A stretch of 64,000 nucleotides of DNA, taken from NCBI GenBank assembly GCA_963736005.1, contig CAVTNB010000001.1, positions 480,001 to 544,000 on the forward strand, written 5' to 3'. This DNA is from an uncultured Pseudomonadota bacterium (GTDB taxonomy: Bacteria; Vulcanimicrobiota; Vulcanimicrobiia; Eremiobacterales; Eremiobacteraceae). The notes below the pieces were generated by a model. That model ran no database searches. It saw only the letters and a program-made list of their open reading frames with translations, and was not told the origin of the DNA. Position numbers and translations under genes: made by a program. This document shows, in pieces, positions 22,302 through 35,366 of this stretch. Numbering within the stretch: position 1 is the first letter of the stretch; every line of letters begins with the position of its first letter.

Positions 22302-24077
22302 CTAGAAATTGCTGGCCGGCTGATGGAGCATTTGCGTGCGATAGAGCTTCGCATAGACGCCGCCGCGTGCCAAAAGATCGGCGTGCGTTCCATGCTCGAC
22401 AACCTTTCCCTCAGACATGACAAGGATCTTTGTCGCCCGGCGGATGGTCGAGAGCCGATGCGCAATGATAAATGTCGTGCGGCCCACGAGCAGCCGATCG
22501 AGTGCCTCGCTGATCAGCACTTCGGACTGCGCATCCAAACTCGATGTCGCCTCATCCAAAATCAGAATTTTTGGATTGCGTAAAATAGCTCGGGCGATGG
22601 CGATGCGCTGACGCTCGCCGCCTGACAGGCGGAGGCCGCGCGATCCGACGGTCGTGTTGTATCCCTCTGGAAAATTCTGAATGAACTCGTGCGCATTGGC
22701 AAATCTGGCCGCATCTTCGATCTCGGCCTTCGTCGCATCCAGTCGACCATAGCGGATGTTTTGTTCGATCGTGTCTGAGAAAAGCTGGGGATCTTGGGGG
22801 ACGATGGCGATCGACTCCCGCAGCGAGGCAAGCGTCACCTCGCGCACGTCATTGCCGTCGACGCGCACGATGCCGGACGTGGGAATGTAAAATCGAGGAA
22901 TCAGGTTGACCAGCGTTGTCTTCCCGGCGCCCGAAGGCCCAACGAGCGCGATGATTTCACCTGGCTGCACCTCGGCGGACACGCCGTTGAGCACTTCGTT
23001 CGTGCCATCGTAAGCGAAATGCACGTTTTCGAAGGCAACCTCGCCGAGCACGTTGTGCAGCTTGCGTGCACCGGGTGCTTCGTGCTCCTCAATCGGCAGG
23101 TCAAGGATCTCGAAGATGCGGCGCGCGCCGACGATTGCTTTATTGAGCTCGCCGAAATAATTTGTCAGCTGGTTAATCGGGTTGCTGGCAACAATTGCCA
23201 CGGTGAGAAACGCCGCGAGCTCTGCGGGTGTCTTGCGCCCGGTGACAAGTTCGTAAAACGACACGCCGGCGAGCACCAAGAGACCAACGGTGACCAAAAA
23301 ATCGATCACGGGGATTTGAGTCAGCGAGATCTGGGCAAGTTTCATGGCCGAACCCAAGTAGGCATCGTTGCGTTCCGTAAAGCGCTTCACTTCGTAGGAC
23401 TCGCGCCGGAAGGCTTTGATGGGGCGCATCGATTCGAGGGCTTCTTGCAGCGCAGCGTTGACGTCGGCAATCCGTGAGAGCGAAACCTTCGTCGCGCTCC
23501 GGACGATGAGCGAGAAGCGAAAGACGGCGAACGAGACAAGCGGCGCAACCGCCAACGTGACCAGCGTAAGGACCCAGTCGAGGTAAAACATGTAAATCAG
23601 CGCCCCCACCAACGTGATAATGGCGCTCGTGAACAGCGGTAACGAGGTCACCCCGACCACCATGAGCGAGACGTCGTTATCGAAGCGCGAGATCAATTCA
23701 CCACTTCGCCAGCGGTCGAAGACTGGCAGCGGCAGGAACTGGATGCGGGTAAAAAGATCGCCGCGGACGCGGGCGACAACCCTCTGTCCGACCGTGGTCA
23801 TGGTATAGCCGCCAGCATATTGTGCGATATTCTTCACGATGTTGAGCGCCAAGCCGCCGAGCAGCGCCAACAGCAATGCGTGCAGGCTGTGCTGCTGTAC
23901 CGAACCGATGAGCCCTTTGACCGCGAATGCGTAGCCGATGGTCGCAAGCGATGCGACGCCCATGAGGCAGACGCCGACCAGCATCTGTGGAATGGATGGC
24001 CGCGCATAGGCCATGAGCCGGCGGTAAACCATTGGCGGCGTGGTCTTAGGGGGTACGCCCTTCAAATCCCGCCCCAT
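22302..24077 (-). CDS. MsbA-like ABC exporter (TMD-NBD fusion)
   Basis: Multi-helix hydrophobic N-terminal domain; GPSGAGKT, LSGGERQR, ILILDEATS, IAHRLST; start uncertain. Confidence 0.9.
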   Translation of the reverse strand: MGRDLKGVPPKTTPPMVYRRLMAYARPSIPQMLVGVCLMGVASLATIGYAFAVKGLIGSVQQHSLHALLLALLGGLALNIVKNIAQYAGGYTMTTVGQRVVARVRGDLFTRIQFLPLPVFDRWRSGELISRFDNDVSLMVVGVTSLPLFTSAIITLVGALIYMFYLDWVLTLVTLAVAPLVSFAVFRFSLIVRSATKVSLSRIADVNAALQEALESMRPIKAFRRESYEVKRFTERNDAYLGSAMKLAQISLTQIPVIDFLVTVGLLVLAGVSFYELVTGRKTPAELAAFLTVAIVASNPINQLTNYFGELNKAIVGARRIFEILDLPIEEHEAPGARKLHNVLGEVAFENVHFAYDGTNEVLNGVSAEVQPGEIIALVGPSGAGKTTLVNLIPRFYIPTSGIVRVDGNDVREVTLASLRESIAIVPQDPQLFSDTIEQNIRYGRLDATKAEIEDAARFANAHEFIQNFPEGYNTTVGSRGLRLSGGERQRIAIARAILRNPKILILDEATSSLDAQSEVLISEALDRLLVGRTTFIIAHRLSTIRRATKILVMSEGKVVEHGTHADLLARGGVYAKLYRTQMLHQPASNF

Positions 24078-24122
24078 TCCAAGGACTGCCCGCGCACACC
24101 CCACAATGATTCACGAGCAACG

Positions 24123-24908
24123 ATGCATCGTCTGCTTCATCCTATTTTTTTCATGCACGTCCCTAAGTGCGCGGGCAAGTCGGTCTTCTCCATTCTCAGC
24201 CGGAAATTTGACCGCGCGCAAATTTGCCCGCAACCCCCCTATGGCACGTGGCAGTGGAAGGCTAGTGAAGTCCGCGGATACAGTCTGTACTCCGGACACT
24301 TTTCATCGGACTTCGTGGAAGAGATGGCAACAGGTGGGTCCAAACTCGTGATCATGAGGCATCCGTTGAGTCGCATCGTCTCGTTATATGATTTTTGGCG
24401 GTCGTATCGTTGGGATTACATCCGCTCGTCGCTACCACCACCTCCTTTCAACGGACCCGCGCTAGCAAAATCCGGCTCTCTCATGGACTTTCTCGAGACG
24501 ACCTCAGAATTTGGAGTGACTCGAATCTACAACACAGTGGCGCGGCAAGTGCTTGGCCGCCGGTTTGCGCAACTCTGGCCGAACGAGGACGCCATCATTT
24601 CGGAGTCGATCGGTGCGCTGCGCGGCTTTGCGTGGGTTGGGATAAGCGAGCTTTTTACTCCGTCGGCGGCGCTGCTGTGCGCGATGCTGCAACAGCCGGT
24701 GGCCAGCCCGGAGCCCCTCGAAGGGGTCACGCACGACGTCAGCACCGACCCTCACCGCGAAATGGTGTCGAAGTCGAAGGCGACGGCATTGGAAGCCGAA
24801 CGCATTCTCGAGGGTAATCGCGTCGACTTGGCGCTCTACGAGGAAGGCCGCAAGATTTTGCAGGAGAGGATCGGCCAAACGCTCGCGGATCCTTCCACTT
24901 CCGGTTGA
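24123..24908 (+). CDS. Sulfotransferase family 2 protein
   Basis: FFMHVPKCAGKS, SGHF, MRHPLSRIVSLYDF, NRVDLALYE. Confidence 0.82.
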   Translation: MHRLLHPIFFMHVPKCAGKSVFSILSRKFDRAQICPQPPYGTWQWKASEVRGYSLYSGHFSSDFVEEMATGGSKLVIMRHPLSRIVSLYDFWRSYRWDYIRSSLPPPPFNGPALAKSGSLMDFLETTSEFGVTRIYNTVARQVLGRRFAQLWPNEDAIISESIGALRGFAWVGISELFTPSAALLCAMLQQPVASPEPLEGVTHDVSTDPHREMVSKSKATALEAERILEGNRVDLALYEEGRKILQERIGQTLADPSTSG

Positions 24909-24917
24909 GCAATTCTC

Positions 24918-25952
24918 ATTAACGTCCTCGTGGTGACAAGCCAGGTGCCGTTCGTCCACGGCGACGCGCACGACGTGGGTACGCATCTTGTGGATCATTT
25001 GCGGCGTCACGGTGCCGAGGCGGAGGCTCTACGGCTGCCCGTTTGTTGGACGCCGCCCGAACGTCTTATCGAAGAAATGCTCATCGCTTGCACCTTACGT
25101 CTGTGGAATGTGGATCGAGTGATCGCGCTCCGGTTTCCGTCGTATCTCATCTCTCACCCAGACAAGGTGCTCTGGGTCCTGCATCAATATGGTGACGCCT
25201 ACGAGATGTGGGACCAAGGACGAACACCTCTTTGCGCCAAGCCGCGGGGCAAGCAGATCCGAGATGCCGTCGTGCGTGCCGACAGCCTCGCCTTCGCGCA
25301 GGCACGGCGCATCTATGCCAGCACTCGCAGCATCGCAAACAGGCTGCATCGCTACAACGCAGTGAGGGCGCGAGTGTTATGCCCACCCTTGCATGACCCG
25401 GAATTGTTCACGGGAGGTGAAAACGAGGGATACATCATCGCTCCGGGGACGGTCGACTCGACCAGGCGTCAGACGCTTTTGGTTCAAGCCTTGCGCCACG
25501 CGCCTGGTGCTCATTTGGTCATCGCCGGTCCACCGAGCACGCCTACTGATGCCGAACTGTTAGAGCGTCTCATCGAGCAAGAAGGCATGAGCGATCGCGT
25601 CCGCTTGGATTTTCGAATCCTGACGCGCGCGCAACTCGCCGACCTGATCAACCGCTCGCTGGCCGTGGCGTACCTGCCGCAGGACGACGACGGTACGAGC
25701 AGCGTGCCCATGGAAGCGTTCCAGGCAGGCAAACCGCTCATCACAACGTCGGACTCCGCAGCGGTGCTTGAGGTGGTCGAGTGCGGTCGCACCGGGCTCG
25801 TGGCGCAACCCAATCCGGAAAGTTTGGGAGAAGCGTTGAGGCTTGCAAGCAGTGCCTTGGCAAGAACCGTCAGCATGGGTCTGGCGGCACGGCAGCAACA
25901 AGAAGCTCGGGGAACAACGTGGGCAAGAGTCGTGGAGTGCCTCCTAGCATGA
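24918..25952 (+). CDS. Glycosyltransferase family 4, divergent paralog of 27785-28822
   Basis: Aligns by eye with the 27785-28822 protein; the start may be ATT at 24918 or GTG at 24930. Confidence 0.75.
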   Translation: MNVLVVTSQVPFVHGDAHDVGTHLVDHLRRHGAEAEALRLPVCWTPPERLIEEMLIACTLRLWNVDRVIALRFPSYLISHPDKVLWVLHQYGDAYEMWDQGRTPLCAKPRGKQIRDAVVRADSLAFAQARRIYASTRSIANRLHRYNAVRARVLCPPLHDPELFTGGENEGYIIAPGTVDSTRRQTLLVQALRHAPGAHLVIAGPPSTPTDAELLERLIEQEGMSDRVRLDFRILTRAQLADLINRSLAVAYLPQDDDGTSSVPMEAFQAGKPLITTSDSAAVLEVVECGRTGLVAQPNPESLGEALRLASSALARTVSMGLAARQQQEARGTTWARVVECLLA

Positions 25953-26689
25953 GCCTGCGCATTGTTTGGGGCGGGCCGTGGAACCAGCAATCCGCCGCGG
26001 CGCGGAAGGGCTTGGACATCGTCTTGGAGCTCTTGTCGCGCGGGCACCTGATCGACGTGCTGCGAACCGAAGTAGGAAGGGCTGCAAAGCTTGCCTCTCT
26101 TTCATCCGTGGTCACTGCTCACTTGTGGAACGACGTTTCGACTCCCGACGTGCTGCGCAACGCAGATGCGATCATCGTCAACGTCGGTGATGACTACAAC
26201 CTGTATGGCGGGATGTTGAACAGTTTTTCACAGCTTGGCGCCGTTGCAATCTTTCACGACTCTCTCTTAGCCAATCTCGTGTACGCTTGGGCTATTGCGT
26301 CCGGCCCAGGCACAGAAGCCGAGCGTTTCGAGTCCGCCTTCCAAGCCGTAACCCACACCCGTGCGATTCTGGAATGGTTCGCGAGCGGCGCGATTGGCGC
26401 CGTGCTGCACACCCAACAGGACTTCGATTGCGTACGTGAAGCCTGCGCAGGGCCGGTCGCCGTGATCCCACCCCCAGTCGCAGGATGTCGCACGCTTGTC
26501 TCACGCTATGTGGATAGGCTGCTCCCAATTGTTGCTTCGGCCATCTCCGATCGACCGGTGCTCCTGGCCGAACAGGCCATTGGACGAACGCTCGGCGCGT
26601 TTGGTCTCGATGTCGCGGACCCGGCAATCGAGCGCATCGCAACGGTATTTGATTCTTTGTACACAAGTCAGGATACGGTAAGCGAATGA
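25949..26689 (+). CDS. Glycosyltransferase-like protein, apparently N-terminal GT-B domain only
   Basis: MSLRIVWGGPWNQQSA...AIFHD; ATGA-coupled on both sides; no EX7E C-terminal domain. Confidence 0.55.
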   Translation: MSLRIVWGGPWNQQSAAARKGLDIVLELLSRGHLIDVLRTEVGRAAKLASLSSVVTAHLWNDVSTPDVLRNADAIIVNVGDDYNLYGGMLNSFSQLGAVAIFHDSLLANLVYAWAIASGPGTEAERFESAFQAVTHTRAILEWFASGAIGAVLHTQQDFDCVREACAGPVAVIPPPVAGCRTLVSRYVDRLLPIVASAISDRPVLLAEQAIGRTLGAFGLDVADPAIERIATVFDSLYTSQDTVSE

Positions 26690-27783
26690 GCGCGCACCGC
26701 ATTCCGCTCTATCAACCGGATCTGTCGGGCAACGAGCGCCGTTACGTGCTCGAGTGCATCGATAGCACGTGGATCTCTTCGATTGGCGAGTTCATCCCGA
26801 AGTTTGAAAGCGCGATCGCTAAGGAGACGCAGGCACAGCATGCGATTGCGGTTTGCAACGGAACGGTCGCGTTGCACTTGGCGTTGCATTGCTTGGACAT
26901 TGGCCCCGGCGATGAGGTGATCGTTCCGACATTCACCTACATCTCGTCCGTGAACACCATTGCCCAGACAGGCGCAACGCCTGTTTTTGCCGAGTCGAAA
27001 CAGGCCGACTGGAATCTGGATCCGACCGACATCGAGCGGCGAATCACCCCCCGCACCAAAGCCATTGTGGCCGTGCATCTCTATGGTACGTCCTGCGATA
27101 TGCCAGCCATCAAGGCGCTCGCCGACGCCAGAGGATTGCGGATCGTCGAGGATTGCGCTGAAGCGCTGGGCACGCGTCTCGGGGGCCGACACGTCGGCAC
27201 CTTCGGCGACGTTGGAACGTTCAGTTTCTTCGGCAACAAGACCGTCACGACTGGCGAGGGCGGCATGGCGATTACCAATGACGATCGATTGGCGGCAAAG
27301 TTACGGCTGGTGAAAGGACAAGGTCAGTCGGCGACGCGCCGCTACTGGCACGAAGTGCTCGGCTTTAACTACCGCATGACCAATATCGAGGCCGCGCTCG
27401 GCCTCGCTCAGATGGAGAGGTTGCCCCACATCTTGGCTCGCAAGCGCGACATTGCCGCACGCTATCGAGAGCTACTTGCCACCCACCCCGTGACGTTTCA
27501 GTATGCAGCGTCTGAGGTTGAAAGCTCTAATTGGCTCGTCAGCCTCTTGCTACCGCCCTCCGCTAACAGAGAATCGGTCATGGCGCACATGGCCGAGTTG
27601 GGGGTTGAGACTCGCCCGGTGTTTTATTGCGCTCACCAAATGCCCATGTATAAGAGCGCCGAAGCCTTCCCAGTGGCAATGGACATCGCGGCACGGGGTA
27701 TTTCGCTGCCAAGTTACCCGACGCTCTCCCCCGCCGACATCACGCGGGTGACCGAGTCTTTGACCAGCGCTTTGCAAAACTAG
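26686..27783 (+). CDS. DegT/DnrJ PLP aminotransferase, GDP-perosamine synthase-like
   Basis: WISSIG, NGTVALHLAL, IVEDCAEA, SFFGNKTVTTGEGGM, RYWHEVLGFNYRMTN. Confidence 0.9.
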   Translation: MSAHRIPLYQPDLSGNERRYVLECIDSTWISSIGEFIPKFESAIAKETQAQHAIAVCNGTVALHLALHCLDIGPGDEVIVPTFTYISSVNTIAQTGATPVFAESKQADWNLDPTDIERRITPRTKAIVAVHLYGTSCDMPAIKALADARGLRIVEDCAEALGTRLGGRHVGTFGDVGTFSFFGNKTVTTGEGGMAITNDDRLAAKLRLVKGQGQSATRRYWHEVLGFNYRMTNIEAALGLAQMERLPHILARKRDIAARYRELLATHPVTFQYAASEVESSNWLVSLLLPPSANRESVMAHMAELGVETRPVFYCAHQMPMYKSAEAFPVAMDIAARGISLPSYPTLSPADITRVTESLTSALQN

Positions 27784-27784
27784 C

Positions 27785-28822
27785 TCACGCGAGCAATCGG
27801 TCGAGGACTCGCTCCCACGTGATACCCAATTTTTGCAATTGCTCGTGCGCCGATTCACCCATCTCTCGCGCGAGAGCCCTGTCGGCAAATAGCCGGTCAA
27901 ATGCTTGAGCAAGAGCTTCGGGATCGGGCGGTAGGACGTATCCGTTCTCGCCATCGGAGACAAACTCCAACACGCCCCCCGCATCGGAGAGCGTCACCGT
28001 GCAGCGGTGGGCTTGGGCCGCCTCAATGGTTGAATAGCCATAAGAATCTTCGTCCAATGGGACATATGCGGTCGCAAGCGCTCCTGCGAACCGCGCGATC
28101 TTGTCTTCCTCGCTGATCCATCGATCTTCGATCGCAACTTTGTCGTTCAGGCCTGCGCGCTCGACCAGTTCGTGCAGCGAGCTGGCGTATTCGGGGCTCG
28201 TGCTGCTCCCACACAAGCGCAGCCGCACTGCACTGCGAGTGTGACGCATGGCCTCCACCAGCAGATGTTGGCGCTTGTGGTGCTCCAAGCGACTGATACA
28301 CACAACTTCATCACCGTAGGGGCCGGAAACGAACGACTCCGGCCGGAGAACCGGCGGATAGAGCACTTCGCTCCCTATCCCATTAAAACGTAAGAGACGC
28401 TCGCCGACGATTCGCGAATTGGAAAAGATCGTGCGCGCTTCGAGCAGCGCAACGGTATCCGCGCGCATGACGGCGGCGCGGAGTGCTCGCCAGCGCGCCG
28501 TGTCCGGCATCGGGCTATATGGCGTATTCCATAGATCGTAGTACATGCGGATATGGTGAATGAACCAAACCACTTTGACCGGGTGCGGCACCACATGCGC
28601 GGGCGGACGAAAGGTGATGATGCGATCGAAGAAGTCGTCCAGGCGAAGGAGGCGAAAGGCCGCCATTTGCTCCAAGATGGTGTCCGGCGTGTCGGTATTG
28701 GGGATGTAGACGATCTCCGACTGTTGTCCGTTCTCCAAGAGTTTGGCGTGCAACCACTCGACGATGTTACGGCCGCCCCCGTACACGAGCGGAACGCATG
28801 AAGATACCAGACCCACTTTCAT
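27785..28822 (-). CDS. Glycosyltransferase family 4
   Basis: VPLVYGGG, SRLEHHKRQ, PLDEDSYGYSTIEAA. Confidence 0.88.
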   Translation of the reverse strand: MKVGLVSSCVPLVYGGGRNIVEWLHAKLLENGQQSEIVYIPNTDTPDTILEQMAAFRLLRLDDFFDRIITFRPPAHVVPHPVKVVWFIHHIRMYYDLWNTPYSPMPDTARWRALRAAVMRADTVALLEARTIFSNSRIVGERLLRFNGIGSEVLYPPVLRPESFVSGPYGDEVVCISRLEHHKRQHLLVEAMRHTRSAVRLRLCGSSTSPEYASSLHELVERAGLNDKVAIEDRWISEEDKIARFAGALATAYVPLDEDSYGYSTIEAAQAHRCTVTLSDAGGVLEFVSDGENGYVLPPDPEALAQAFDRLFADRALAREMGESAHEQLQKLGITWERVLDRLLA

Positions 28823-29469
28823 CGGGTGACGTTACCTGTTGAGCGCAATGCGCGAGCCGGCACGCCGCCCACCAACGCGCCATCTGGCACATCGGAAATC
28901 ACCGCCGCCCCCGCCGCGACGATCGCGTCCGAACCAATCGTTACCTTCGGGCAAATTGCGCTGCCCACGCCAACGAGCGTGCGTGCACCAACGCGAACAG
29001 AACCCGCGAGCGAGCAGCCGGGAGCAATATGCGCTGCTTCGCCGATGACATTGTCGTGATCGATAATCGCCCCTGTGTTGACGACCGCAAGTTCGCAAAT
29101 AATTGACTGGGTCCCGATCACAGCGCGGGCCATCACGACCGCACCATCGAGAACCCTGGCCGTGGGAGAGACAAACGCCTGCGGGTGAACGATAGCCGGT
29201 AAACCAAAGCCGAGATCGCGGAGCTTGCGTCCCAACGTCTGGCGCAAGCGATTGTCGCCAACGGCTATCACCGCCGTTCGCACGCCTTTTGACAAAAGAT
29301 CAGGCAGGATGTCATCGCTCCCTACAACGGGGACATCGAGAACGCGGCCTCCCCGCTCGGCCGGGTCGGTGAGACCAACGACGTCAAACCGTTGCAGAGC
29401 CAGCACAGCTTCAAGCACGACTTTCGCGTGAAAACCCGCCCCGACGATGACCAGTTGCGACGCGTTCAT
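28819..29469 (-). CDS. NeuD/PglD/PerB-family hexapeptide sugar N-acetyltransferase
   Basis: IVGAGFHAKVV, AVGDNRLR, VNTGAIIDHD, hexapeptide repeats, GVPAR. Confidence 0.88.
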   Translation of the reverse strand: MNASQLVIVGAGFHAKVVLEAVLALQRFDVVGLTDPAERGGRVLDVPVVGSDDILPDLLSKGVRTAVIAVGDNRLRQTLGRKLRDLGFGLPAIVHPQAFVSPTARVLDGAVVMARAVIGTQSIICELAVVNTGAIIDHDNVIGEAAHIAPGCSLAGSVRVGARTLVGVGSAICPKVTIGSDAIVAAGAAVISDVPDGALVGGVPARALRSTGNVTR

Positions 29470-30449
29470 GCGAACGCAACGTTTGGGTAGCTGCTCGGGG
29501 GGCGCCGCAAAAAGAGCAGGTTGATCGAAAAGACTTCATCGAGTCCAGTGGTACGAAGCACGCGGCACTGGCCTGTTGCTTCATCGATCTCATAGCCAGT
29601 AAAACCATCTGACACAAACGGTTCCAACCATGCCGCGATGGTTACGCCGGCGCGCACCAGATGCGTCGGGCCGAATTCAACGATGACGGCCACATCGGGA
29701 TTCTCCCCAATGATGCGGTGCATTCCTCGCCACACGGGTAGCTCGTAACCTTCGGCGTCGATCTTGACAAGCGATACTCGCGTGTGCTCGGGAACGGATT
29801 CATCTAACGTGCACAGCGGAACTTCGAGCGTGCGAACCTCGCCTTCAAGCGGAAGCAACGAGCTATGGCCGAGAATTTTTGCGGCATGCATCGTTGCGAT
29901 CCCGGATTGGTCGCCGCAGGCGGCGGCCACGACGGAAACGCGATCCGCTACTCCGTTGAGGTACATGCTTCTGCGCAGCACATCGGCCAGCCGCGGAAGC
30001 GGCTCAAAGGCCATGACCGATCCCGTGGCGCCGACTCGCTGGGCGGCAGGTAGCGTGAGCAAACCAATATTTGCTCCAACGTCCACGACCAGGTCGCCCT
30101 CGCGGATCAACTGCGTCATCACGGTCGTCGTGCCCGGCTCCAGCACACCGGTGTCCAGCAGTGCGGTGAGCAGCACGTCGTCTTCTGCCGGAACGATCAA
30201 CCGTCCGTAAGGCGTTTTTACCAAGACTTCTTGACTTGCGAGTTGCACGGTAGTGGACGCTAGCTTGTCGATGCGTGAATCTCGCAATGCTGGATGCGCT
30301 GCCACCCAAGCCGGCCCGAACAACGAGCGGATCGCTTCAAGCCCGCGGCGGGCCGACAGACGCGCGCGCGAAGACAGCTGCGCGACGACCTTTCGCCCCG
30401 GTGGGCCCACCCGCCCCAGCCGAACACCTGCCCTGATTGCCTTTGCCAT
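29466..30449 (-). CDS. FkbM-family methyltransferase
   Basis: VDVGANIG, AFEP, LVKIDAEGYE. Confidence 0.88.
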   Translation of the reverse strand: MAKAIRAGVRLGRVGPPGRKVVAQLSSRARLSARRGLEAIRSLFGPAWVAAHPALRDSRIDKLASTTVQLASQEVLVKTPYGRLIVPAEDDVLLTALLDTGVLEPGTTTVMTQLIREGDLVVDVGANIGLLTLPAAQRVGATGSVMAFEPLPRLADVLRRSMYLNGVADRVSVVAAACGDQSGIATMHAAKILGHSSLLPLEGEVRTLEVPLCTLDESVPEHTRVSLVKIDAEGYELPVWRGMHRIIGENPDVAVIVEFGPTHLVRAGVTIAAWLEPFVSDGFTGYEIDEATGQCRVLRTTGLDEVFSINLLFLRRPPSSYPNVAFA

Positions 30450-30484: not shown

Positions 30485-31891
30485 TCACGAGCGGTGACGA
30501 TAGGCTTGATATTTGCTCAAGAATTCACGTGCGGCTTGTTCGTGATCGACGATCGGGCATGGGTATTGTTCTGGCGTAAAAAAACCAAGCTCGGTTTGCT
30601 GCGACGCGCCGATCGCCCACGGCGCCAACGCCGCCGCCGTCGGCAGCTTGGCCAGTTCGCGACAGTACTTGCGCACGTACATCGCTTGCGCGTCAAAGAG
30701 TTGCGCCTGGCGTACTGGATTGTAGATGCGCGGATAGGCCGCTTGGTCCGAACCGATGCCCGCGATGCGCTGCCAGTTGCCCACGCACAGCGCCTCATCG
30801 GCTTCGAGCAGTTCTCGCATCCACAAGTCTCGTCCAATGCGCCAGTCCAACCCCAAGTCGGCGGTGCAAAACGAGGCCGCAACGACCGCACCGCGCTGGT
30901 GCACGTGTCCGTACATGCACAGCTGGCGCATCGCTGCGTCAACCAACGGGTACCCCGTCTTCCCCGATGTCCAGGCTTTGATCATCCGCTCGTCATGGGA
31001 CCATTCGAAACCGCGCATCTTGGTCTGCAGTGGTTCGTCGTACACTTCGGGCGCGAAATATGCCAGGTGAATAAAAAAATCGCGCAACGCAAGCCGTCGC
31101 AGAAAGGCGCTCATCGATAAGCGCTCTTGTGCGAGGGTCCAGGTACGAGCCATTTTCTCAGCAACAGCGTGGAAAACCGTGCGCGGGCTCAGGAGTCCAA
31201 AGCGCAGGTACGCCGCGAGATCCGACGTCCCCACGCGGCCCGGGTACTCTGCATTCGTGCTGTAATCGGCGACGCGTGCAGAGACAAATCTTGCAAGGGC
31301 CGCCAGAGCCGCCGCTTCGCTTGGCTCGGGCATGTCGCGCGCCGGATCTTGCTCTTCGATTGGGCCTGGGTCGGGATCGCGGCCTGTCGGAAGGGCGGTT
31401 GGCAGAGATCGCTCGACGGGCGTTGCTTTCCAGGCCTGATAAAACGGCGGAAAGACTCGGTAACCAGTGCCGGGTGCTTGCTTGCGTTGCGCGATCGCTT
31501 CCGGCTCGTGAACCACGCCGCCACCTAACGAGCGCAGCTCAATGCCCGCTGCGCTGAGGTGCGCTCGTACGTCTCGTTCGAGCTCGAGCTCTGTGCGGTC
31601 GAACGCCCGCGCGCAAAAAACTCGCGTCGCGCCTAAGCGCTTTGCCGCCGCTTCAAGAGCGACCGCCGGATTGCCGGCGAGCATGCTCAACGAGGCATCG
31701 GCTTTGCCAAGCGCCAGCTTGAAGCTCTGTAGTGCTGCAGTCGTAAACCGGCGCTGACGCGGATTGAGCTGTTGCGACGTCTGAGCACAATAAACGCCAT
31801 ACACCGTCTTGGATGACGTCATGGCGCTCGACAGCGCCGCGTTGTCGTTGAGCCGCAGGTCTCGGCGAAACCAGTGGAGGCTAACGCTCAT
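30485..31891 (-). CDS. Photolyase/cryptochrome-family protein with non-canonical active site
   Basis: WFRRDLRLNDN, GKTGYPLVDAAMRQL, DWR, RIYNP, YPCPIVDH. Confidence 0.9.
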   Translation of the reverse strand: MSVSLHWFRRDLRLNDNAALSSAMTSSKTVYGVYCAQTSQQLNPRQRRFTTAALQSFKLALGKADASLSMLAGNPAVALEAAAKRLGATRVFCARAFDRTELELERDVRAHLSAAGIELRSLGGGVVHEPEAIAQRKQAPGTGYRVFPPFYQAWKATPVERSLPTALPTGRDPDPGPIEEQDPARDMPEPSEAAALAALARFVSARVADYSTNAEYPGRVGTSDLAAYLRFGLLSPRTVFHAVAEKMARTWTLAQERLSMSAFLRRLALRDFFIHLAYFAPEVYDEPLQTKMRGFEWSHDERMIKAWTSGKTGYPLVDAAMRQLCMYGHVHQRGAVVAASFCTADLGLDWRIGRDLWMRELLEADEALCVGNWQRIAGIGSDQAAYPRIYNPVRQAQLFDAQAMYVRKYCRELAKLPTAAALAPWAIGASQQTELGFFTPEQYPCPIVDHEQAAREFLSKYQAYRHRS

Positions 31892-31900
31892 ATCTTTTTG

Positions 31901-31939
31901 GAAAAGCGAAGGGCGCCACGGTGTTACCCAGCGGCGCCC
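31901..31939 (-). terminator. Putative intrinsic terminator after the cytochrome c gene
   Basis: GGGCGCC...GGCGCCC stem followed by TTCGCTTTT on the minus strand. Confidence 0.4.
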
Positions 31940-31963
31940 GATGCTTTCGTCCTAGCGAGTTCG

Positions 31964-32413
31964 CTATTTTAGCGAGGCGACGTAGGCGGCGACGTCTGCA
32001 ACCTGCTTGTTCGTCAGCGGCAACTTCGGCATGCCCGAACTCTTGTCGACGCCTTGCGGATTGAGAACCATGTAGGCGACTTGGCCCGCCTTCAGACCCG
32101 CCCCCGCGAGCGTCGGGCCGACTTGCCCGTTCTTCCCGCCCGCGCCATGGCAGCTTGCGCAATTCGCCGCAAACACTGCCGCCCCGGCGGTCGCATTACC
32201 CGGAGCGACTTTCGCGGAGGGCAATTTTGCCAGCGGGATAGGCAGGCTGGCCTGTGCCGCCACCGTGTTTCCTGACGATGCCATCGTCGCCGCGTTTGAA
32301 GACGACGACATCGAAGTTGCGCCAGTGTCCGACGAGTTTTGGCTCTTCGCGCATGAAGTAAAGGCAAATCCAGCAACGATGAGGGCGATGAACAGAAGAA
32401 ACAAATTTTTCAC
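31964..32413 (-). CDS. Lipoprotein monoheme cytochrome c
   Basis: Signal peptide with lipobox-like FTSC, Ser-rich linker, CASCH, distal Met in SGMP; GAGGAG SD before GTG. Confidence 0.85.
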   Translation of the reverse strand: MKNLFLLFIALIVAGFAFTSCAKSQNSSDTGATSMSSSSNAATMASSGNTVAAQASLPIPLAKLPSAKVAPGNATAGAAVFAANCASCHGAGGKNGQVGPTLAGAGLKAGQVAYMVLNPQGVDKSSGMPKLPLTNKQVADVAAYVASLK

Positions 32414-32455
32414 GGCAGCTTTTCTCCTCAAATAGAGCGCTGAACTCACAGGCGG

Positions 32456-33697
32456 TTACCCGGTTTGCTCGGCCAATCCTCCCTTTTCTTCGCGAACGAA
32501 CGCGAGAGCGATGGCCCCGACGGTAACGAAGATCGCTATGAGAGCGAAGAGCAAGCGGTAACCGAGCGCAAGATCGCCAGAAGCGATGCCAACGCGATCG
32601 ACGAGGAGGCCACCGATGATTGGTGCCGCAACTTGGGGACCTGAGGCACCGATGTTCCAGATCGCCATGAGCGCCCCAGCCCTGCCTGGAGGGAGCAAGA
32701 CACACGCCAGGGCCCAGTCGACGGAATAGTATGCACCCCAGCCGATCCCGAGCAGCGCGGCTAACGGCAGCAAGCCATTCATGCCGCGAATGAGGCTCAC
32801 AGCCGCGGCACCCACGGCCAGCATCGCGAGTGCGCCATAGAGGATGCGCTTCTTTGGCACTTTGTCTCCGGCGATGCCCGCGGGCACGGTGCCGATAAGC
32901 GCACAGCCCGTCATGATGAGAAGCAAATTCAAACTCGTTGCGAGATAGGCGCTCACGTGCTGCGCAAAGCGAAGATAGAAAGCAAAAAATGGGAGAATCA
33001 AATACAGGCCCATGCTGACCGCCGTGCGTGAGCCGATCAGCCACGCGAAACTCGTGCGTGCCGGCCATGTGGCAGGGAGGTCTGTTGGTTGTTCGGGGTG
33101 ACGGTGTGCGGGAATGCCGAGCAACGTGATGCAGAGCGTGACCAAAAGGACGATTGAAAGCGCGCTCACCAAATGAACGAGCCCAGCCGTGAACATCGCA
33201 GCACTGACGGTGGGCCCCGGCTGGCGGATGAACACGCGCGCGAGCAGCAGGCCGGCAGCGCTGCCGCCCAACCGGAAAAAGCCCATGTACGCAGAGGCTC
33301 GGCTGCGCGAACCCGCGGCAACGCGCGTTGGCATCAGCGCCTGGTAAGGTCCACCTGCGACATTGAAGGCGATCTGCACGACTGCGAAAGCCACGAGGAC
33401 GTAGAAAAATGATGGGGCCAGCGCGAATGCGTACAAGCCAACAATATTGACGATCGTTCCCGCTGCGATCAACAGCTTGTGATGACCACGTCGATCGGAG
33501 AGCCTGCCAGCCCCGTACTGGGAGAGAATGGACAGCAGCGCTCCAGAGCCGGACAGGACAGCGGTCGCCGTACCAATGCTCGTGGGAGGGAAAAAGCGCG
33601 CGATCTGTCCCTGCAGCGCGGCGCCAAGCAGCGCCGACCATTGCAATTCCCACGCGAACCAAAAGACGGACAGGGAAAAGAAGTTCTCTCTACGCAC
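32456..33697 (-). CDS. MFS transporter
   Basis: About 12 hydrophobic segments; GRLSDRRG motif A; GTG overlaps the upstream TAG. Confidence 0.85.
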   Translation of the reverse strand: MRRENFFSLSVFWFAWELQWSALLGAALQGQIARFFPPTSIGTATAVLSGSGALLSILSQYGAGRLSDRRGHHKLLIAAGTIVNIVGLYAFALAPSFFYVLVAFAVVQIAFNVAGGPYQALMPTRVAAGSRSRASAYMGFFRLGGSAAGLLLARVFIRQPGPTVSAAMFTAGLVHLVSALSIVLLVTLCITLLGIPAHRHPEQPTDLPATWPARTSFAWLIGSRTAVSMGLYLILPFFAFYLRFAQHVSAYLATSLNLLLIMTGCALIGTVPAGIAGDKVPKKRILYGALAMLAVGAAAVSLIRGMNGLLPLAALLGIGWGAYYSVDWALACVLLPPGRAGALMAIWNIGASGPQVAAPIIGGLLVDRVGIASGDLALGYRLLFALIAIFVTVGAIALAFVREEKGGLAEQTG

Positions 33698-34451
33698 GGC
33701 GCTCGAGCACAGTTCCATGTTTTTGCACGTAGTCGACGTCGAGCACGGAGTCGCAGTCCATCGCGAGCTCAGGGTACGCGCCCAAAACTGCAACAGCTTT
33801 GCCGCCCGTGAGTCGGGAAAGCCGCTGCACCACATGCTCCACGCTCAAGCGACCGAACATGTGGCGCGCCAGAATCGGCAAGCCCAGAAGCGACGCCATG
33901 GCAACCTGACTTCGCCTTGCGGCGAAGCAACTGCGCAGCATTTGTTCGTTCGCAAGGGCGAGCTCGGTCGAGACAACGCAAAGACTTCCGCCGGTCCAGT
34001 ACGCATCGCCAACACGCGCGAATTTGCTCCTGCCGCCCGGAAACGCGGCGAGAAACTCCTCACGCTCGTAAATCGGATAGGCAAAGTCAGCGTCATCCGG
34101 CACGCGCGAAAGAAAATCGTCGACGTGGGACGCCGTTACGAATGGCAGGTCCGAAGCGCAAAGCAGGGCTCTGCGCGTTCCAGCTTCACGTAAACCAGCG
34201 AGCGCGTTCTCTTCGCCCGAGCTTCGCTCTTTGAGCCAGAGATCGACGCCGCTCACCATCGTGCGAATGCTGCTTGGCCCGACAACGACGATGCGACGGA
34301 CGTTGGACGCGTGACGAACCGCAGCGAGAATCATCTCGAGCGGCGTCGCGTTGCCGACTCGAATAAGTGCCTTGATCTCGTTGCCCATGCGCGCGGCTTC
34401 ATCACGGCGAAAACGCCCTGCGGCCAAGATAACGGCATCCACCAGTTCCAC
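33690..34451 (-). CDS. MobA-like NTP-transferase-family protein
   Basis: DAVILAAG, KALI, CASDLPF, ELAMDCD; TAGTG overlap with the upstream gene. Confidence 0.75.
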   Translation of the reverse strand: MELVDAVILAAGRFRRDEAARMGNEIKALIRVGNATPLEMILAAVRHASNVRRIVVVGPSSIRTMVSGVDLWLKERSSGEENALAGLREAGTRRALLCASDLPFVTASHVDDFLSRVPDDADFAYPIYEREEFLAAFPGGRSKFARVGDAYWTGGSLCVVSTELALANEQMLRSCFAARRSQVAMASLLGLPILARHMFGRLSVEHVVQRLSRLTGGKAVAVLGAYPELAMDCDSVLDVDYVQKHGTVLERRA

Positions 34452-35008
34452 TATATTCGCGTGAGGTCCAATCCGCCTGAAGATTCCAAAACGCGCGCGA
34501 CATCGTCGACCCGCGCGGATGGTGCGGCCACAATCAATGCAAGCGACCCTTCGTTCATGCCATCGATCAGACGAAAGCCTGCATGAGCTGACTGTTGAGG
34601 CGCAAGCGCCGCACCCAAAACGGACCCGACGAATAGACCCAAAACGAAAAACAAGAGTGCGTTTGCCAGCGGTTGCAGGTCTGCCGGAACGGGAATCTCG
34701 TGGCCTGCTGGCGTGAAGCTCAAGAGGATGCCGGCAACAATGCCGAGCGCTGCTCCCCAAACGCCGGCGCGGTCGACCGCACGCCGCGCGGTCGCCTCAC
34801 CGCTGTACTCACCCATACCGCAAAATGGGTCATCGGCCAGCAGATCTGCAACCACTCCGCTGCGCTGCGCGAGCTCGTTTGCTCGTTCTTGGGGGAGCGC
34901 TCCCACATGCACATCGTGAGGCGCGATGCCGGCGCGCAGCAACAGTTCGACCGCCTCGGTCAACGCCGCCTCGGTAGAAAAGACGCAACCGATAGCGCGG
35001 GGCGTCAA
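34451..35008 (-). CDS. Hypothetical membrane protein (two TM helices)
   Basis: Gly-rich TM pair flanked by alpha/beta segments; coupled to the downstream gene; start uncertain. Confidence 0.6.
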   Translation of the reverse strand: MTPRAIGCVFSTEAALTEAVELLLRAGIAPHDVHVGALPQERANELAQRSGVVADLLADDPFCGMGEYSGEATARRAVDRAGVWGAALGIVAGILLSFTPAGHEIPVPADLQPLANALLFFVLGLFVGSVLGAALAPQQSAHAGFRLIDGMNEGSLALIVAAPSARVDDVARVLESSGGLDLTRI

Positions 35009-35042
35009 AGGAGCTGGCGCACCTTGGCCAAAGTGGGCAGCG

Positions 35043-35366
35043 ATGGATTCCGACAACGTTGAGCACCCCGCACAACCAGATGTGACGCCGCGCAGCGGCG
35101 TTCTCGTCGGCCGAGCCGTAACCATTCGGGCGAGCAACCCGCCCCCACCCTATTTCACCGATGTTCACAGAAGCTGGATCGGCAAAACCGGTCGCGTGCA
35201 CGCGATCATCCCTGCGGTACCACGCGACAACCCGCTGGTCAAAGTCGGCTTTGACGAAGGAACCGAGATCGTGTTCTATCGCCTGAGCGAACTCGACGTT
35301 CATGAGGACACCCCGTCCCAAGATTCACGCAAACACGGGCAGCGCGGGAGCCATCTCCCGGACTAA
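35043..35366 (+). CDS. Small hypothetical protein, SH3/KOW-like
   Basis: VGRAVTI...WIGKTGRVHAI...LVKVGF...VFYRLSEL beta-barrel-like pattern. Confidence 0.55.
   Translation: MDSDNVEHPAQPDVTPRSGVLVGRAVTIRASNPPPPYFTDVHRSWIGKTGRVHAIIPAVPRDNPLVKVGFDEGTEIVFYRLSELDVHEDTPSQDSRKHGQRGSHLPD

Follow-up and report, generated by a model that had tools for sequence, protein, structure and literature searches.

The photolyase-like gene and the constraint on its sites

The subject of this study is a photolyase-like gene in a 64,000-nucleotide stretch of DNA (contig CAVTNB010000001.1 of assembly GCA_963736005.1, positions 480,001 to 544,000), which comes from an uncultured bacterium of the family Eremiobacteraceae and is referred to as a whole as the window. 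The gene lies on the minus strand, and its product is a member of a conserved and previously unflagged subfamily of the cryptochrome/photolyase family (CPF) in which the asparagine (Asn) next to N5 of the flavin has been replaced, by cysteine (Cys) in the window's family and by alanine (Ala) in its sister lineages. Judging from residues and gene context, we put the probability at about 0.55 that this protein is a flavoprotein without repair activity, most likely a light or redox sensor or a stress effector. The features of the gene are the following, with positions counted along the window.

30485..31891, minus strand: photolyase-like gene, 468 amino acids (aa; P0001), a Cys-type member of the Asn-less clade of Eremiobacterota (open reading frame and Pfam)
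31418..31882, minus strand: N-terminal alpha/beta (antenna) domain, residues 4-158 (PF00875, 114.4 bits)
30506..31105, minus strand: helical domain binding flavin adenine dinucleotide (FAD), residues 263-462 (PF03441, 203.8 bits)
30773..30790, minus strand: flavin-proximal motif L368-C369-V370-G371-N372-W373 (E. coli sites 377-382), with the TGC codon of Cys369 at 30785-30787
30887..30889, minus strand: codon of Ala335, in place of the Arg344 of the Arg-Asp salt bridge behind the flavin (alignment)
31085..31096, minus strand: R266...L269 in place of the lesion-binding E274 and W277, at sites that vary across the clade (alignment)

The open reading frame (ORF) starts with ATG, runs for 468 codons without an internal stop and is intact. 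A preliminary description, made from the letters alone, had taken it for a two-domain protein of photolyase fold, and this was borne out by the Pfam matches and by an AlphaFold2 model based on a 90-row alignment (predicted local distance difference test, pLDDT, 94.4; predicted template modelling score, pTM, 0.92). When the model was ranked with Foldseek, the class I enzyme of A. nidulans came first (1OWL; template modelling score, TM, 0.92), followed by the class III enzyme of A. tumefaciens (4U63; 0.89) and the E. coli enzyme (1DNP; 0.87). The C-terminus coincides with the end of the photolyase homology region, as the alignment to 4U63 and 1DNP reaches residue 465 of 468. All photolyase and cryptochrome models of NCBIfam scored below their own cut-offs: NF007955 gave 255.6 bits (cut-off 506), TIGR03556 277.2 (884.6), the plant-cryptochrome model TIGR02766 209 (604) and the Cry-DASH model TIGR02765 158.6 (317). 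With this last score, and with Cys rather than Asn at site 378, the protein falls outside Cry-DASH. None of the NCBIfam models is specific to the Cys-type, to the Ala-type or to the third, divergent CPF type described below, which also occurs in the phylum.

Residues were mapped in a MAFFT alignment of the query with E. coli K-12 PhrB (taken from NC_000913) and 256 relatives, the literature numbering of the E. coli enzyme being the residue index minus 1. This alignment reproduced every assignment that had previously been made by eye, including the position of the Cys codon. The electron-transfer tryptophan (Trp) triad is kept (W306, W359 and W382, here W297, W350 and W373), as is R342 (R333). 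Replaced are R226 (by A214), E274 (R266), W277 (L269), N341 (Q332), R344 (A335), M345 (V336), N378 (C369) and W384 (R375), and TSRLS has become TSDLA at residues 222-226, while the FAD-phosphate contacts Y222, S235, R278 and D374 are retained. In 138 ordinary representatives the same columns are nearly invariant (N378 in 137, R344 in all 138, N341 in 136, W277 in 134), so that the replacements in the query are not a matter of chance. Asn at the N5 site, present in 137 of these 138, was found in none of 105 full-length Cys-type relatives and in none of 14 Ala-type proteins. According to PMC9356274, Asn378 is conserved in photolyases for pyrimidine dimers of the cyclobutane type (CPDs) and for 6-4 products, in DASH proteins and in type II animal cryptochromes (CRYs); the site holds Cys in type I animal CRYs and Asp in plant CRYs. 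This agrees with the earlier view of Cys as a mark of Drosophila-type CRYs and of Asn as a mark of repair enzymes.

Around the flavin, 100 of the 105 full-length relatives carry Leu or Ile at site 377 and 103 carry Asn at site 381. The Arg344-Asp372 salt bridge, which is highly conserved in the CPF (PMC9356274), is absent from the query, where the two positions are held by A335 and E363. Its loss is specific to the Cys-type: all 105 Cys-type proteins have Ala or Gly at site 344, where Arg is retained in the Ala-type (14 of 14) and in all 138 ordinary representatives. In the antenna region, E109 is kept as E101 in 93 of the 105.

The pattern of constraint was expressed as mean column entropy in bits for 170 canonical, 84 Ala-type and 113 Cys-type rows. 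Over all columns the values were 2.16, 1.18 and 1.12, respectively, and at eight flavin-contact sites they were 0.54, 0.34 and 0.36. The seven lesion-pocket sites gave 0.28 in canonical proteins, 1.21 in the Ala-type and 1.06 in the Cys-type. Pocket entropy within the clade is thus about the protein-wide mean, which means that the pocket has relaxed and lost its special constraint, and no new conserved pocket stands in its place. The preliminary description had correctly reported the repair residues as gone (R226, E274, W277, N341, M345, W384 and N378 are all replaced in the query), but its term 'rebuilt' for the lesion pocket does not fit sites that are as variable as the protein average (1.06-1.21 against means of 1.12-1.18). 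W382 and W359 are essentially invariant in the clade, and W306 is variable. As the flavin site and the inner Trp pair are under strong selection and the pocket is not, this pattern argues, as our principal line of evidence, that a flavin-dependent function remains and that lesion binding does not.

Relatives, selection and distribution

A word-indexed search over 5.8 billion proteins returned 109 relatives at 49-93% identity, below which there was a gap down to 41% or less. The named relatives carry the labels Candidatus Eremiobacteraceae, Eremiobacter antarcticus, Eremiobacteraeota or, in a single case, Acidoferrales. An exhaustive search of 1.84 billion cluster representatives at 50% identity found one full-length representative of the group (P0066); fragments aside, the next full-length matches had 40% identity or less. 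The N5 site of the 105 full-length relatives is Cys in 100, Ala in three, Ser in one and a gap in one. Selection was assessed on nine Cys-type genes from genomes, for which the ratio of nonsynonymous to synonymous substitution rates (dN/dS) was 0.09-0.30 in 36 of 36 pairs; the least saturated pair (dS 0.65) had a ratio of 0.093. In addition, a contig of public run X3 was identical to the window over 30556-30793, Cys codon included, and a 14-kb contig of run X1 was 96% identical over 2.1 kb. In the X1 comparison, 30 of the 37 listed ORF differences that were analysed fell at third codon positions (the 2.1 kb contain 36 further differences besides), and one of the two runs may be the source sample of the window's assembly. 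Conceivably, the substitutions could have arisen by recent decay of the gene, or by an assembly or sequencing error in this genome. This explanation deserves practically no credence, being ruled out by the retention of Cys in 100 of 105 relatives down to 49% identity, by dN/dS values of at most 0.30 in every pair, by the exact match of the codon in the X3 contig together with the mostly third-position changes in the X1 contig, and by an intact ORF whose model reaches a pLDDT of 94. The checks proposed in the preliminary description, orthologue conservation with dN/dS below 1 and independent sequence support for the substitutions, therefore both came out in favour of its possibly undescribed clade.

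The distribution of the subfamily was determined by a PF03441 search that covered 151 genomes of the phylum, among them that of the window. The domain was present in nine of nine other genomes of the window's family and in 71 of 71 genomes of the sister family; most other families were without a match, and the scores across the phylum were bimodal. For 86 lower-scoring matches, which were taken with 6-kb flanks, 15 key sites were read per match. The Cys-type signature (ARLWQRAVWELCNWR-like) was found in the window's genome and eight others, all of the window's own family. This family comprises ten genomes, and from the tenth (G128) only a canonical locus was read; it is counted among the 32 canonical loci, the 170 canonical rows and the five 'canonical only' genomes, and no conclusion depends on it. 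The Ala-type signature (N378 replaced by Ala, rarely by Gly or Ser; N341 by Pro; M345 by Ala; E274 by Ala or Ser; D372 by Glu; R344 kept) was found at 71 loci in sister lineages of the same class. One sister-family genome (G077) has the canonical enzyme only. Cys at N5 is thus a variant of a single family. Elsewhere in the class the orthologue has Ala, which indicates that the thiol is dispensable for the core function. As a mark of the clade, the insect-like Cys stood for the window's family (nine of nine read) and fell for the rest of the class (Ala, 71 loci).

Among the matches listed for named public genomes, there were two Cys-type loci, both titled Vulcanimicrobiota, seven Ala-type loci titled Vulcanimicrobiota, Eremiobacteraeota, Elarobacter or Baltobacteraceae, and two Ala-type loci titled Acidiferrales or Acidoferrum. 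Other phyla accounted for 69 of the loci listed, 62 of which were readable; site 378 was Asn in 61 and Glu in one haloarchaeal locus. As far as sampled, the subfamily is limited to one class of Vulcanimicrobiota (Eremiobacterota, WPS-2). Our literature search found no description of a photolyase-family protein from Eremiobacterota, nor of a bacterial one with Cys at N5. Two genes in the phylum appeared damaged, each representing a possible pseudogene or assembly error: the Ala-type gene of G036 (L074) is split in two ORFs (117 and 634 aa, stop to stop), and the canonical photolyase gene of G121 (L029) contains an in-frame TGA.

A canonical protein, recognised by the signature REWWNRRMWDxNGWW, co-occurs with the Asn-less protein in 27 of 80 genomes (24 Ala-type plus canonical, two with a further 'other' protein besides these, and one Cys-type plus canonical). 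This indicates that the two are not redundant. The remaining 53 of the 80 are without a canonical class I or III photolyase (eight Cys-only, 44 Ala-only, one Ala-type plus 'other'), and no other PF03441 or PF04244 match was found in the window's own genome, which is 84% complete. The Asn-less protein might thus be a light-driven repair enzyme for DNA or RNA with a divergent pocket, acting on another lesion or nucleic-acid form and serving most genomes of the class as their sole photolyase. Consistent with this are the retained fold, FAD contacts and inner Trp pair, as well as the finding that true photolyase genes, too, can be under the control of an extracytoplasmic function (ECF) sigma factor (PMC5241685), as proposed below for the Ala-type. 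Nevertheless, we regard it as unlikely. The seven pocket sites that are near-invariant in 170 canonical proteins are replaced and of average variability in the clade, where a new substrate would predict a new conserved pocket, and Asn378 is lost in every member. Moreover, a hydrophobic residue at site 377 lowers repair and the stability of the fully reduced flavin (FADH-) in three photolyases (PMC9356274), and a canonical photolyase is kept alongside in the 27 genomes.

A tree of 77 rows was calculated with IQ-TREE (LG+C20 with posterior mean site frequencies, PMSF; quick search), with support given only as the Shimodaira-Hasegawa-like approximate likelihood ratio test (SH-aLRT). Rows with the plant-cryptochrome model as their best NCBIfam match served as the class III proxy. 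The 15 Cys-type and the 21 Ala-type rows each formed a group with a support of 99, and the two were joined, also at 99, with a stem length of 0.59; the sampled class I-like and class III-like rows fall outside this joint clade. The class III-like rows had a clade support of 100; their junction with the class I-like rows, which include E. coli and the canonical Eremiobacterota enzymes, reached only 83. Since the root was set on the third, divergent CPF type of the phylum, with long-branch effects being possible, the tree does not fix the place of the clade relative to classes I and III. The common origin of the Cys-type and Ala-type is also reflected in derived residues that both have and that are near-absent in canonical proteins (F366W, F396P, F399Y, R457A, E363R and G381N). 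Of the phylogeny that the preliminary description had proposed, the separate clade was thus recovered, in a tree that does not contain DASH, 6-4, plant or animal sequences.

The third CPF type (L036, L037, L041, L062 and L075, from genomes G090, G070, G138, G018 and G039) has an N-terminal extension and, at the 15 key sites, the signature MRWEFRRAWDIHQAM. It is 27% identical to the query and sits on a long branch of its own. Its best solved relative scored 138 bits and none is close, and at least 591 loci show it to be widespread in Verrucomicrobiota, Planctomycetota and Proteobacteria. It may be the published NewCRY group.

Gene neighbourhood

The neighbouring genes of the window that enter the comparison are listed here; across loci, neighbours were compared by targeted tblastn.

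31964..32449, minus strand: mono-haem cytochrome c gene, 161 aa, with a signal sequence containing a lipobox-like FTSC, a linker rich in Ser and Ala, and the haem motif CASCH (PF13442/PF00034)
31892..31963, minus strand: 72-nt spacer that separates the cytochrome c gene from the photolyase-like gene
32456..33835, minus strand: major facilitator superfamily (MFS) transporter gene, whose stop ends at 32456, so that 6 nt remain to the start codon of the cytochrome c gene at 32449 (PF07690)
22329..24023, minus strand: homologue of an ATP-binding cassette (ABC) exporter, shifted by some 6 kb in the window (48.5% identity over 575 aa in tblastn)
26686-27783, plus strand: DegT aminotransferase
27785-28822, minus strand: GT1 glycosyltransferase
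28819-29469, minus strand: PglD-like acetyltransferase
29466-30449, minus strand: FkbM methyltransferase

As the preliminary description had stated, the photolyase-like gene lies directly downstream of a cytochrome c gene, on the same strand and at a distance of 72 nt. In the other loci we looked for an ORF with a CxxCH motif that ended between -60 and +250 nt of the gene start. Such a gene was present directly upstream, on the same strand, in nine of nine Cys-type loci (eight fetched plus the window) and in at least 29 of 71 Ala-type loci, and in none of the 32 canonical loci; two further Ala-type cytochrome c ORFs were located at 285 and 343 nt. Many Ala-type gaps measured about 15 nt or less from the stop to the start of homology, and the Cys-type gaps 70-141 nt. 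In the window, a simple consensus scan found no promoter-like or terminator-like site in the spacer 31892-31963, which is weak evidence for co-transcription. The scan gave seven terminator-like sites against 4.8 +/- 2.3 expected, which is chance level, and no promoter-like site at all. The lipoprotein-like signal sequences suggest that the cytochromes should be periplasmic.

An ECF sigma gene (Sigma70_r2 plus r4_2) is located upstream of the Ala-type gene, on the same strand, in 47 of 71 loci, and an anti-sigma-like ORF lies between the two. Of the 71, 63 have the sigma or the cytochrome c gene. One example of the sigma and anti-sigma-like pair, L045:3275-4809, includes a TonB_C domain, and L052 has an HxxxCxxC-like motif. 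The loci of the window's own family showed no adjacent sigma gene. Conceivably, the sigma, anti-sigma, cytochrome c and photolyase-like genes of the Ala-type loci may form a stress-responsive operon. Regulation of this kind is documented in V. cholerae, where CPF genes are controlled by ECF sigmaE-ChrR in blue-light stress (PMC5241685).

The MFS gene is syntenic in seven of the eight other Cys-type loci and in none of the 71 Ala-type loci. The ABC exporter gene is found downstream in both types (69 of 71 Ala-type, 7 of 8 Cys-type). Since no more than about 1 kb separates it from the photolyase-like gene in seven of the eight sister loci, the sugar-modification block at 24100-30449, which separates the two in the window, looks like a strain-specific inserted surface-polysaccharide cassette. 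Immediately downstream, in convergent orientation, 67 of 71 Ala-type and six of eight Cys-type loci have a gene for a Cys-rich membrane protein that matches no Pfam family; it had no match in the window at E 1e-4. The protein (for instance L073:5349-5966) is about 200 aa long, and its N-terminal CxxC...CxxC segment is connected by a Pro-rich linker to a membrane domain at the C-terminus. Further upstream in the window, two long minus-strand ORFs share about 300 nt: 33690-34760, which encodes a MobA-like nucleotidyltransferase (NTP transferase), and 34451-35137, for which Pfam gave no match. As both have homologues in seven of the eight sister loci, the MobA-like gene probably starts further downstream than the listed TTG.

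Proposed function and likeness to known systems

Clade, conservation, selection, constraint and context were computed here, and from them we infer FAD binding, photochemistry, loss of repair and signalling. Across the subfamily, the class I/III fold is preserved, together with the contacts to the FAD phosphates and ribityl chain and with the two Trp residues nearest the flavin. The N5-bonding Asn has been lost, and so have the residues by which a flipped-out pyrimidine dimer is held and repaired. In the window's family, N5 faces a Cys flanked by Leu (377) and Asn (381), with the Arg-Asp bridge gone. In PMC9356274, a hydrophobic site 377, which is Val415 in the Drosophila cryptochrome (dCRY), is associated with faster oxidation and with destabilisation of FADH-; polar replacements of Val415 permit reduction past the anionic semiquinone, and the Asn found at 381 in type I animal CRYs accompanies a less stable neutral radical. 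By analogy, Leu or Ile at 377, Asn at 381 and Ala or Cys at 378 suggest a bound flavin that would be oxidised at rest. Blue light would then drive electron transfer via Trp373 and Trp350, and because there is no proton-donating Asn and site 377 is hydrophobic, the flavin would halt at the anionic semiquinone, short of the repair-competent FADH-. A protein that does not reach FADH- would serve as a sensor of light or redox state or as an effector in photo-oxidative stress rather than as a repair enzyme, and it would be co-expressed with a periplasmic lipoprotein cytochrome c. The non-repairing bacterial light or redox sensor of an undescribed clade, as put forward in the preliminary description, thus stands as regards the conserved clade and the missing repair residues; its sensor function is a proposal built upon these.

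Several observations speak against this proposal. The E. coli mutants N378C and N378D did not show cryptochrome behaviour (PMC9356274), which weakens any logic based on a single site. With Arg344 replaced, the Cys-type lacks a positive charge by which any anionic reduced flavin would be favoured, and this argues against a stable anionic semiquinone in this type, although E363R, common to both types, might compensate for the lost charge, which is speculation on our part. Of the 105 Cys-type proteins, only 79 have Trp at the terminal site 306, which is mostly Phe in the Ala-type, and the protein is without a C-terminal extension of the kind seen in animal and plant CRYs. It is also without a signal peptide, so that a direct functional link to a cytochrome c predicted to be periplasmic is left unexplained. 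In addition, MFS, NTP-transferase and periplasmic-binding-protein genes lie upstream in seven of eight own-family loci, and the adjacency of cytochrome c there could therefore be plain synteny. Finally, in the 53 genomes without a canonical photolyase the protein could be the sole photoreactivating enzyme.

Some of these observations would fit a light-independent role as well, in which the fold is reused by a redox enzyme, by a regulator that binds flavin or a nucleotide, or by a scaffold, that is, a pseudoenzyme comparable to the mammalian type II CRYs. The relaxed pocket, the missing C-terminal tail, the frequent loss of Trp306, the loss of the Arg-Asp bridge in the Cys-type and the position of the gene beside redox (cytochrome c) and stress (ECF sigma) genes are all compatible with such a role. 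However, the flavin contacts and W382/W359 are conserved far above average, and both types have a Trp at F366, which points to retained flavin photochemistry. We therefore hold a light-independent role to be a minority view, with perhaps one chance in a few, and prefer the non-repair light or redox sensor or stress effector.

A more far-reaching version of the preferred reading, which we put forward tentatively and with considerable doubt, is that of an independently evolved bacterial cryptochrome: a class-wide blue-light or redox receptor that forms an anionic semiquinone and feeds an ECF sigma/anti-sigma circuit together with a periplasmic cytochrome c. If this were true, the circuit would receive one input from each side of the membrane, and the window's family would have convergently gained the insect-type Leu-Cys-x-x-Asn and dropped an otherwise universal Arg-Asp bridge. 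Bolder still, Cys369 might form a light-induced adduct like that of light-oxygen-voltage (LOV) domains or act as a redox-sensitive thiol switch at the flavin.

Photolyase-family proteins that gave up repair and took on signalling are known from plants, from animals and from the little-studied bacterial NewCRY group. The present clade would be a further, independent lineage of this kind. With a match in every sampled genome of two families, the gene appears to be a core gene of a whole bacterial class, and it is a candidate light or redox sensor for Eremiobacterota (Vulcanimicrobiota), a phylum that includes aerobic anoxygenic phototrophs (PMC9758169). The natural Ala/Cys pair at the N5 site, together with one family that is devoid of the Arg-Asp bridge, would amount to a natural experiment on the redox end state of the flavin.

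Among solved structures, the best matches of the query are the class III enzyme PhrA of A. tumefaciens (4U63, 229 bits) and the class I enzymes of A. nidulans (1OWL/1TEZ, 216 bits) and E. coli (1DNP, 197 bits). With these photolyases the query has in common its two-domain fold (TM 0.87-0.92) and its length, without extensions, and the clade shares with them the FAD-phosphate contacts and W382/W359. The clade differs from them in the replacement of Asn378, Glu274, Trp277, Asn341 and Met345, and in the Cys-type also of Arg226, as well as in its own context, since the upstream cytochrome c gene is absent at the 32 canonical loci.

The likeness to insect cryptochromes, which the preliminary description had stressed, is real at three sites: the trio of a hydrophobic residue at 377, Cys at 378 and Asn at 381 (L368, C369 and N372 in the query) is that of type I animal CRYs, where it has been tied to the anionic semiquinone and a low stability of FADH- (PMC9356274). 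The part that did not stand is its extent, as the Cys is confined to one family. The two are not kin, since dCRY scored about 95 bits and the dCRY and 6-4 chains together 95-136 bits, against 197-229 for classes I and III, and the query has neither a C-terminal tail nor the salt-bridge Arg. The insect-type flavin environment of the window's family is, on these comparisons, best explained as convergence within one family only.

The bacterial and haloarchaeal NewCRY (NCRY) proteins, once annotated as CPD photolyases, are believed to have a signalling role in place of repair. They are without E274 and N341, a loss common to the query (R266, Q332), and their member VcCry2 binds FAD and does not repair (PMC7736829, PMC9016551). 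Unlike them, the query has no N- or C-terminal extension. A Cys-type orthologue, DLM53_08590 (P0035, 62% identical to the query), is coloured 'classI' and not NewCRY in the network of PMC7736829 (Table S1). By this published colouring of one orthologue the clade is not the NewCRY cluster, and with a member filed under class I, the label 'deoxyribodipyrimidine photo-lyase' that is now in use is probably incorrect throughout the clade.

Signals are transmitted by the C-terminal extensions of animal and plant CRYs. Plant CRYs differ from the query in this long extension and in their Asp at 378; like the present clade, they descend from class III/I photolyases and carry a changed residue next to N5, and they have given up repair, as is proposed here for the clade.

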